Part shown: positions 61,133-62,629 of the stretch, in pieces
Numbering within the stretch: the stretch's first letter is position 1
Layout of the letters: every line of letters begins with the position of its first letter
Position numbers and translations under genes: made by a program
Origin: Escherichia phage KKP 3954
Direction: 5' to 3' (one strand)
Sequence record: OR067838.1
DNA: 64,000 bases
Notes under the pieces: model-generated
Told to the model about the DNA's origin: nothing
Database searches by the model: none
Seen by the model: only the letters and a program-made list of their open reading frames with translations

Positions 61133-61138
61133 ATCATG

Positions 61139-61208
61139 TATCCCGTGCTGGATTCGAACCAGCGTCACAATAAATTGTGGATCTCTTATCCTGTAAGTCT
61201 AACGGGAA
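61139..61208 (-). tRNA. tRNA-like gene, aberrant (anticodon arm has only a 4-nt loop); possible pseudogene
   Basis: Good T-arm GCTGG-TTCGAAT-CCAGC and 6-bp acceptor stem, but anticodon region folds as CACAA-TTTA-TTGTG. Confidence 0.4.
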
Positions 61209-61210
61209 AC

Positions 61211-61933: not shown

Positions 61934-62008
61934 TGGTGCTCCCACACTGAATCGAACAGAGATCCACGGATTACAAAACCGTTGTAATAGCCATTATACT
62001 ATAGGAGC
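61934..62008 (-). tRNA. tRNA-Thr (anticodon TGT)
   Basis: Manual cloverleaf: acceptor GCTCCTA/TGGGAGC, loop TTTGTAA. Confidence 0.6.
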
Positions 62009-62014
62009 AATGCT

Positions 62015-62091
62015 GGGACTCGGCAGGATTCGATACCTGCAATTCCAGAAGCCTATTGGCGACTGGGGGTTTACCTTAACTCTACAAGTCC
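62015..62091 (-). tRNA. tRNA-like gene, anticodon unresolved (irregular anticodon arm, 8-nt T-loop)
   Basis: 7-bp acceptor stem GGACTTG/CGAGTCC and T-arm GCAGG-TATCGAAT-CCTGC, but no canonical 5-bp/7-nt anticodon arm. Confidence 0.4.
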
Positions 62092-62098
62092 ATAATTC

Positions 62099-62184
62099 TG
62101 GCGATGAGTATAGGATTCGAACCTATATTGTTCTTTCGAACACGGATTAACAGTCCGCCGCTTAAACCGTTCAGCCAACTCATC
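62099..62184 (-). tRNA. type-II (long variable arm) tRNA with Asn anticodon GTT
   Basis: Perfect 7-bp acceptor GATGAGT/ACTCATC, discriminator G, CCA encoded; anticodon arm CGGACTGTTAATCCG; variable arm GTTC-GAAA-GAAC. Confidence 0.6.
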
Positions 62185-62190
62185 TTAATT

Positions 62191-62278
62191 TGGTGGTGAG
62201 TGATGGAGTCGAACCACCCGAATCGCAATGATAACAGATTTACAGTCTGCCCCGCTACCCCTACGGAATTAACTCACC
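62191..62278 (-). tRNA. tRNA-Tyr (anticodon GTA), type II
   Basis: Anticodon arm GCAGA-CTGTAAA-TCTGT; discriminator A; CCA encoded. Confidence 0.65.
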
Positions 62279-62409: not shown

Positions 62410-62495
62410 TGGCGGTAGATGTAGGACTCGAACCTACACGCCGTTTCCGACTACAGTTTAGCAAACTGTCGTGGCTACCATTTCACCAATCTACC
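62410..62495 (-). tRNA. tRNA-Ser (anticodon GCT), type II
   Basis: Anticodon arm ACAGT-TTGCTAA-ACTGT; long variable arm; discriminator G. Confidence 0.7.
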
Positions 62496-62500
62496 TAATC

Positions 62501-62591
62501 TGGCGGAAGGAGGGAGAGTCGAACTCCCAAGGCTCTTTCAAGCTCGGCGGTTTTCAAGACCGTTTTCGTCGCCACATCGATTTGCCCTTCC
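62501..62591 (-). tRNA. tRNA-Ser (anticodon TGA), type II
   Basis: Anticodon loop CTTGAAA; T-arm GGGAG-TTCGACT-CTCCC; long variable arm. Confidence 0.65.
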
Positions 62592-62599
62592 ATACTTAT

Positions 62600-62629
62600 A
62601 ATCTAACATAAAATAATGATTGTTGTCAA
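62600..62629 (-). promoter_or_regulatory. possible sigma70-like promoter on minus strand (TTGACA; -10 TAGATT) upstream of tRNA-Ser
   Basis: Hexamers read from reverse complement. Confidence 0.35.

Follow-up and report, generated by a model that had tools for sequence, protein, structure and literature searches.

A long-variable-arm tRNA-Asn(GUU) of an Escherichia phage belongs to a conserved phage family and is probably charged with asparagine

Which amino acid is carried by a tRNA that joins an asparagine anticodon to a long variable arm, and what the arm is for, are the questions raised by an 86-nucleotide (nt) gene of Escherichia phage KKP 3954 (sequence record OR067838.1), located in the 64,000-nt stretch of DNA analysed here (the window). 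In textbooks and in a review of tRNA identity, bacterial long-arm (class II) tRNAs are limited to Ser, Leu and Tyr, plus Sec (PMC9976931). A preliminary description, made from the letters of the window, had left two readings standing, a chimera able to insert Ser at Asn codons or an atypical tRNA-Asn. Our data revealed that the gene belongs to a large, conserved family of long-arm tRNA-Asn, which is spread over many unrelated phages and is almost never found in cells, and that the arm of this family is conserved and under selection. Judging from its identity elements, the window gene is most probably a faithful, working Asn tRNA, charged by the asparaginyl-tRNA synthetase (AsnRS) of the host.

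The gene was called by ARAGORN as tRNA-Asn (gtt), 86 nt, at 62099-62184 on the minus strand, being among the ten genes found by this program in the minus-strand tRNA cluster that fills the last 3 kb of the window. Rfam model RF00005 matched positions 62102-62184 over its full length (1-71) with 60.5 bits (E=1.2e-11), above the curated gathering threshold of 29 bits, and placed a 12-nt insertion in the variable region; with a covariance model of our own, R1, the tRNA scored 93.4 bits. Divided into its structural segments, the RNA reads GAUGAGU UG GCUG AACGGUUU AAGC G GCGGA CUGUUAA UCCGU GUUC GAAA GAAC AAU AUAGG UUCGAAU CCUAU ACUCAUC G CCA. In the ARAGORN brackets the acceptor stem is perfect, with 7 base pairs (bp) that begin with G1-C72 and A2-U71, and the T stem has 5 bp. 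The D stem is of 3 bp in both ARAGORN and Rfam (G10-C25, C11-G24, U12-A23) and is followed by G13/A22, giving the short D stem and the non-Watson-Crick 13:22 pair of a class II core. A 5-bp anticodon stem carries the loop CUGUUAA, and the variable region, for which class II calls for more than about 10 nt forming a stem-loop, comprises 15 nt with a 4-bp stem and a GAAA loop. RNAfold retained the acceptor, variable and T hairpins, the variable one in both the minimum free energy and the centroid structures.

The preliminary description was accurate on the length, the perfect acceptor stem, G73, the encoded CCA, the D arm and the GAAA-capped long arm, leaving only the strand (minus) unmentioned. 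Its statement that the anticodon stem-loop matches that of E. coli tRNA-Asn was likewise borne out, positions 26-43 (GGCGGACUGUUAAUCCGU) having the same letters in the 76-nt E. coli tRNA-Asn, a gene with a 5-nt variable loop that was found in all complete E. coli genomes but one (5425 of 5426). Moreover, ARAGORN and Rfam both placed GUU, and no other triplet, at positions 34-36.

Comparison with relatives supports the same anticodon. The window comes from a Phapecoctavirus, since its region shows 98-98.5% identity to genomes of this group (E. coli myoviruses resembling phAPEC8, ~150 kb), where the gene is annotated as tRNA-Asn. Dozens of phage records contain an orthologue of 96-99% identity, in all cases with GTT, which goes far beyond what chance would give. 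The orthologue of phage tuntematon shows three differences, all at unpaired positions (D loop, 3' spacer of the variable region, T loop), and the same anticodon. Consequently, a sequencing error in the anticodon of a tRNA-Tyr or tRNA-Ser gene, a concern already voiced in the preliminary description, can be excluded, and so can a private mutation of such a gene, GTT being kept in all close relatives and in about ten unrelated phage lineages. A host-derived gene was ruled out as well: the long form occurs in no complete E. coli genome, the host tRNA-Asn being the 76-nt class I form.

The family reaches far beyond Phapecoctavirus. A sensitive BLAST search with the 86-nt gene matched 695 phage records, and ARAGORN, run on fetched representatives, called tRNA-Asn(GUU) of 83-87 nt with G73 in unrelated phage groups, namely T5-like Demerecviridae (INF11, FFH1, SP15 and Proteus phage Stubb), T4-like phages (Karamvirus PG7 and Klebsiella phage Roth51), Marfavirus, rV5-like Vequintavirinae (Erwinia pEp_SNUABM_01 and Escherichia Nernie) and two jumbo phages of Pseudomonas, BRkr and phiKZ (NC_004629 269558-269644). 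In IMG/VR viral contigs, 114 stretches matched an exact pattern that fits the long form alone (CGGACTGTTAATCCG, 14-22 nt, GGTTC), against only 30 in 185,579 bacterial and archaeal species genomes (one each), and ARAGORN found a long tRNA-Asn in 22 of the 30 from cells. Of these 22 loci, twelve are dense arrays, with 7-36 tRNAs in ~8 kb, such as those of Micromonospora and Verrucosispora (32-36 tRNAs in ~8 kb) and of two metagenome-assembled genomes (21-26 tRNAs), and in seven the long tRNA-Asn stands alone. In all, 107 distinct long tRNA-Asn sequences were gathered. The contigs that carry them are rich in tRNAs, with a median of 11 per locus versus 3 for short-Asn contigs among the matches listed, and in the window cluster, as in most clusters examined, no Asn tRNA other than the long form is present.

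Literature searches over full texts outside the subscription journals found no phage tRNA-Asn described as having a long variable arm, and the class is apparently undescribed. A study of Shigella phage Sf14 noted an isotype-model mismatch for the tRNA-Asn of that phage and nothing further, and the word "variable" is absent from the paper on the PARIS defence, which deals with tRNA-Asn (PMC12409363).

Some individual loci deserve mention. Four Micromonospora/Verrucosispora chromosomes (L013, L015, L019, L036) carry 23-36 tRNA genes in ~8 kb, one of which is a long-arm tRNA-Asn of 89-90 nt that has U1-A72 and whose D arm is unusual (AAACCGUAAUUGGUAUCGGG). In Azoarcus sp. L1K30, the "long" region of a chromosomal tRNA-Asn (L039 114-200) is an 11-nt tandem duplication (CCGUAGGUCAU CCGUAGGUC) of the junction between the anticodon stem and the variable loop; this locus was rejected as a false pattern match, having a duplication rather than a hairpin arm. 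In Proteus phage SJ_PmiM, the region L008 ~1497-1545 resembles the 5' half of a long-arm tRNA-Asn with the loop CCGUUAA (C33) and has no T arm, probably as a decayed copy.

The extra arm is under selection, since it covaries. Covariation was evaluated on a 17-sequence alignment (A1), and a Python test of hairpins against shuffles was run on all 107 sequences; a model-based alignment (A2) contained other tRNA species and was left out of the covariation analysis. In A1, the cloverleaf together with the extra helix had 99.3% of cells paired, versus 70.5% in shuffles and 34-46% with slid partners. Pairing reached 100% in the variable-arm helix, each of whose four pairs shows compensatory changes on both sides (for example UUC/GAA, UCC/GGA, AGC/GCU and AAC/GUU). 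Over the 107 sequences, the best hairpin of the variable region averaged 3.47 bp, compared with 2.72 +/- 0.07 bp in 500 shuffles, of which the maximum was 2.95. The loops of the family arms are mostly GNRA, with GAAA in 34 of 78 parsed arms, and the D stem has 3 bp in 60 of 101 sequences and 4 bp in 37.

The identity elements of the tRNA point to asparagine. The identity set of E. coli AsnRS, which is transplantable into tRNA-Lys, consists of G34, U35, U36 and G73 (PMC9976931), and all four are present in the window tRNA. Within the family, G73 is found in 106 of the 107 distinct sequences. Moreover, 77 of the 107 have U1-A72, the normal first pair of bacterial tRNA-Asn and an identity pair for GatCAB, and 45 combine it with C2-G71, an antideterminant for E. 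coli seryl-tRNA synthetase (SerRS) (PMC9976931). In the proposed course of events, the Asn tRNA would be transcribed within the polycistronic tRNA cluster of this phAPEC8-like E. coli myovirus and its transcript would mature into a tRNA of 86 nt with the encoded CCA at its end; host AsnRS would then charge it with asparagine through G34-U35-U36 and G73, and the charged tRNA would presumably decode AAC/AAU in translation. Pseudomonas aeruginosa, the host of phiKZ, makes Asn-tRNA indirectly through GatCAB, and the long tRNA-Asn of phiKZ-type Pseudomonas phages keeps U1-A72.

The origin of the family is consistent with this assignment. In some members, from Erwinia and relatives (L005, L063, L115, L128, L152), the D stem of E. 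coli tRNA-Asn (GUUC/GAAC) is kept beside the anticodon arm. Because some members thus keep both a host-type D stem and a host-type anticodon arm, the family looks like a descendant of a normal tRNA-Asn that expanded its variable loop, rather than of a tRNA for Ser or Tyr whose anticodon had changed. Tyrosyl-tRNA synthetase (TyrRS) looks for A73 and the anticodon GUA, U35 being the strongest element; the window tRNA has G73, itself an antideterminant for TyrRS (PMC9976931), and U36 in place of A36.

Several observations weigh against charging with asparagine. Part of the serine set is carried by the window tRNA, which has G73, G1-C72, C11-G24 and the long arm. The arm of the phage's own tRNA-Ser(GCU) is equally short (5' spacer, stem, loop and 3' spacer of 1 nt, 4 bp, GAAA and 2 nt, versus 0, 4, 4 and 3 in the tRNA-Asn), therefore arm size alone cannot exclude some serylation. 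Furthermore, the conservation of the anticodon arm in the IMG/VR and genome sets was partly imposed by the search pattern. Finally, class II synthetases approach the tRNA from the side of the variable loop, and the extra arm could for this reason hinder AsnRS.

These points lead to the first alternative, a Ser-accepting or dual Ser/Asn chimera, in which SerRS ignores the anticodon, reads G73 and the long arm, and places Ser at AAC/AAU as a programmed mistranslation. Serine identity is indeed independent of the anticodon and tied to the size of the extra arm, and anticodon variants of tRNA-Ser mistranslate (PMC9976931). A single base change turns the Ser(AGY) anticodon GCU into GUU, the phage's tRNA-Ser(GCU) has the same length of 86 nt and also a GAAA-capped arm, and G1-C72 with G2-C71 occurs even in T5-like and T4-like family members. 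However, G73 is common to Ser and Asn identity and therefore does not discriminate between them, and the pair G2-C71, conserved in bacterial tRNA-Ser, is replaced by A2-U71 in the window tRNA. The Ser-type combination of G1-C72 and G2-C71 is present in only 15 of the 107 sequences, and 45 carry the SerRS antideterminant C2-G71. The family arm, with a stem of 3-4 bp and a 3' spacer of 3-4 nt as in the co-resident tRNA-Tyr, is unlike that of 93 co-resident phage tRNA-Ser, mostly with a stem of 5-7 bp and a 1-nt spacer. In addition, an Asn-type anticodon arm and G73 are retained in what is the only Asn tRNA of its cluster, and a constitutive, proteome-wide Asn-to-Ser mistranslator is unlikely to persist across many lytic phage lineages. 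We consider such a chimera improbable. Of the two readings of the preliminary description, the atypical tRNA-Asn stands, with its AsnRS identity set, its host-like anticodon arm and a family that is mostly Asn-like, whereas the Ser chimera loses ground to A2-U71, arm geometry and conservation.

A second alternative, to which we give quite low credence, is a non-translating decoy, whose host-like anticodon arm would titrate, off the ribosome, a nuclease directed against tRNA-Asn or another tRNA-binding host factor. The anticodon arm is that of the host, including the site U36-A-A-U-C/C41 (cut at the slash) of the PARIS nuclease AriB, and some viral tRNAs have been suggested to inhibit AriB by competition (PMC12409363). 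Nevertheless, near-invariant G73, 7-bp acceptor stems with compensatory changes, a canonical T arm and an encoded CCA are needless for a decoy of an anticodon-stem nuclease; the retention of these parts indicates selection for aminoacylation and use by EF-Tu. Lastly, a decaying or non-functional tRNA-Asn pseudogene with a neutral insertion in its variable region, for which the tRNA-like remnants of phage clusters (an rna3-like element at 62009-62098 and "tRNA-Pseudo" annotations in relatives) and the truncated half of SJ_PmiM could speak, is very unlikely indeed in the face of perfectly paired helices, covariation that reaches the extra arm, more than 100 distinct sequences conserved across phage families and close relatives that differ only at unpaired positions.

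With a faithful tRNA-Asn as the preferred reading of the gene, the purpose of its arm is a separate matter. The hypothesis that we prefer for it, though tentative and rather doubtful, is that the arm would be a virus-specific shape tag that evades tRNA-targeting nucleases, in a way unlike the known cleavage-site mutations. The extra arm would alter the shape of the tRNA such that host immune tRNases (PARIS AriB) or phage enzymes that deplete host tRNAs may no longer accept it, and the anticodon arm that faces AsnRS and the ribosome would stay host-like. Structural stabilisation or neutral drift are alternative explanations for the arm.

In this context, PARIS AriB has been described to cleave host tRNA-Asn as a biologically relevant target, the Thr(UGU) and Asn(GUU) tRNAs of the host both being AriB targets, and to read elements distal to the cleavage site and outside the anticodon arm, such as D-loop positions 16-17 and others; jointly, the tRNA-Lys, tRNA-Thr and tRNA-Asn of T5 neutralise PARIS (PMC12409363). 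Another T5 tRNA, tRNA-Tyr, counters retron-Eco7 (PMC11555353). Two findings speak against nuclease evasion: the AriB cleavage site UAAUC/C is intact in the window tRNA, and T5, the sole phage with a tRNA-Asn tested against PARIS, has a normal type I form. The substitutions around AriB site 40/41 that characterise anti-PARIS tRNAs are lacking here, positions 26-43 being those of the host, although the T5-like long-arm versions differ at pair 28:42. Since the host cleavage-site sequence is kept, any escape from the nuclease must be by shape. The D-loop base C16 was considered as a mark of escape (in tRNA-Lys, C in place of U16 impairs cleavage by AriB) and was dropped, phage tuntematon having U at this position.

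The tRNA-Asn of T5 itself (L275 4953-5030, minus strand, corresponding to NC_005859 33952-34029) has 78 nt and belongs to class I, and its anticodon stem is divergent and contains mismatches (GCAUC/GUUGA). Therefore, the PARIS rescue by T5 and a GenBank note, by which a T5 tRNA-Asn with a replaced anticodon is not an amber suppressor, have no direct bearing on the long-arm family and were dropped as direct evidence. In SP15, FFH1 and INF11, a long-arm tRNA-Asn occupies the slot held by the class I form in T5, which suggests gene replacement within T5-like phages at this slot. A 519-nt open reading frame, T5.069, overlaps the 5' end of the T5 tRNA-Asn.

The features of the locus are collected in Table 1. 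The promoter-like site listed there is followed by the run Ser(UGA)-Ser(GCU)-Tyr-Asn-rna3-like-Thr, and it is likely the transcription start of the operon that holds the Asn tRNA. The neighbouring tRNA-Tyr with the loop CUGUAAA, pointed out in the preliminary description, is real; it has an atypical D arm and is named "tRNA-Pseudo-GTA" in some related records. A T-arm-like hairpin (GCAGGUAUCGAAUCCUGC) is present in the rna3-like element, and the order Asn-then-rna3 is common to T5 and Phapecoctavirus, though their Asn tRNAs differ in class.

Table 1. Coordinates of the long-arm tRNA-Asn gene, its parts and its neighbours in the window
Feature	Coordinates	Strand	Details
Class-II-type tRNA-Asn(GUU), 86 nt	62099..62184	-	Encoded CCA 62101-62099, discriminator G73 at 62102; ARAGORN, Rfam, covariance model R1
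Anticodon GUU (tRNA positions 34-36)	62149..62151	-	Inside loop CUGUUAA
Long variable region GUUCGAAAGAACAAU	62127..62141	-	0-nt 5' spacer, 4-bp stem GUUC/GAAC, GAAA tetraloop, 3-nt 3' spacer AAU; ARAGORN brackets
Sigma-70-like promoter (putative)	62600..62629	-	TTGACA, 18 nt, TAGATT, upstream TG; by consensus scan only, promoter-like sites in the region being not above shuffles
tRNA-Ser(GCU)	62410-62495	-	86 nt; arm of 1 nt, 4 bp, 4-nt GAAA loop, 2 nt; ARAGORN brackets
tRNA-Tyr(GUA), A73, long variable arm	62194..62278	-	9 nt upstream of the Asn gene; Rfam 39 bits; not called by ARAGORN; tRNA-Tyr in related phages
tRNA-like element	62009..62098	-	Directly downstream of the Asn tRNA; 90 nt homologous to phage T5 "rna3, putative tRNA-like RNA" (alignment A3)
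tRNA-Thr(UGU)	61934..62008	-	Next gene of the run; ARAGORN

Two further minus-strand elements were observed in the cluster. The gene at 62505-62591 resembles tRNA-Ser(UGA) and has G73, CCA, a long arm and an unusual-looking D arm; ARAGORN gave no call for it, and Rfam matched only the tRNA-Sec model, with 35.7 bits (below the gathering score of 47). In the spacer between tRNA-Met and tRNA-Ile, positions 61133-61210 combine an acceptor-like pairing (CCCGU...ACGGG) with a perfect T arm (GCUGGUUCGAAUCCAGC); this element, called by neither tool, may be a degenerate or unusual tRNA.

Long arms in these phages were not restricted to asparagine. Outside Asn, Ser, Leu and Tyr, they were carried by 5.6% of the tRNAs in long-Asn contigs, versus 2.7% in the short-Asn contigs among the matches listed. 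Long arms capped by GNRA loops were observed in tRNAs for Trp (L005 65-151), Cys (L044 9032-9115), Lys UUU (L141 9623-9710), Thr UGU (L079 206-290) and Glu (L087 4743-4831). For tRNA-Ile(UAU), ARAGORN made 16 calls in loci L041-L154, 11 of them of at least 80 nt, and most of the latter have variable regions of ~20 nt that share CAGAU(A/U)(A/G), for example at L116 5943-6034, L131 12394-12488, L054 1697-1792 and L075 7444-7538; this looks like a second, different class of long-arm phage tRNA. The shape-tag idea could extend to these scattered tRNAs with long arms on the same contigs (Trp, Cys, Thr, Lys, Glu and Ile(UAU)).

A conserved, covarying and phage-enriched class II tRNA-Asn is thus present in model phages, including phiKZ, relatives of T5 (SP15 among them) and T4-like phages of Klebsiella and Enterobacter. 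Should charging occur in the proposed way, AsnRS, the non-discriminating aspartyl-tRNA synthetase with GatCAB (ND-AspRS/GatCAB), EF-Tu and the ribosome must all tolerate an arm on a tRNA that is almost never long in cells. The arm is also a candidate counter-defence feature, because host tRNA-Asn is now known as an immune target, and the long-arm scaffold may serve as an orthogonal or nuclease-resistant tRNA. Furthermore, the class explains odd annotation, such as "tRNA-Asx" calls and the reported cases of phage tRNA-Asn with an isotype mismatch.

Compared with known systems, the phage tRNA shares with E. coli tRNA-Asn (asnT/U/V/W, 76 nt, class I) the anticodon GUU, the loop CUGUUAA, positions 26-43 and G73, as well as the D stem in some family members, but it differs in having a 15-nt hairpin region instead of a 5-nt variable loop, a 3-bp D stem with G13/A22 instead of a 4-bp D stem, and G1-C72/A2-U71 instead of U1-A72. 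With the bacterial class II tRNAs (Ser, Leu, Tyr) it has in common a long arm with a short stem and a tetraloop, together with a class-II-type D arm, and bacterial and phage tRNA-Tyr also have the 3-nt 3' spacer and the arm stem of 3-4 bp. Unlike these tRNAs, it bears the anticodon and the discriminator of asparagine, G73 being an antideterminant for TyrRS and for leucyl-tRNA synthetase (LeuRS), and in contrast to typical tRNA-Ser it has neither G2-C71 nor a longer, 1-nt-spaced arm.

Among unusual tRNAs, allo-tRNAs combine acceptor/T branches of 8/4 or 9/3 with D arms like those of tRNA-Sec and with an identity for Ser or Ala, and some are phage-borne (Mukai et al., 2017; PMC5389517). The phage tRNA-Asn resembles them in its long variable arm and in an anticodon that does not match the structural class, whereas its standard 7/5 branch (7-bp acceptor, 5-bp T stem) and its Asn identity elements set it apart. 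A similar arrangement, a long variable arm on the anticodon of a class I family, is seen in the nematode nev-/nov-tRNAs, reportedly described by Hamashima et al. in 2016 as tRNAs with variable arms and class I anticodons, and said to be leucylated. In these eukaryotic tRNAs the arm would override the anticodon, while the identity elements of the phage tRNA fit the amino acid of its own anticodon. Finally, like the anti-PARIS tRNAs of T5, the window gene is a phage copy of a tRNA species cleaved in defence (Asn GUU), and it adjoins Thr(UGU), another AriB target; unlike the anti-PARIS and anti-retron tRNAs of T5, which carry substitutions at or near the cleavage site, it keeps the site and differs in shape.

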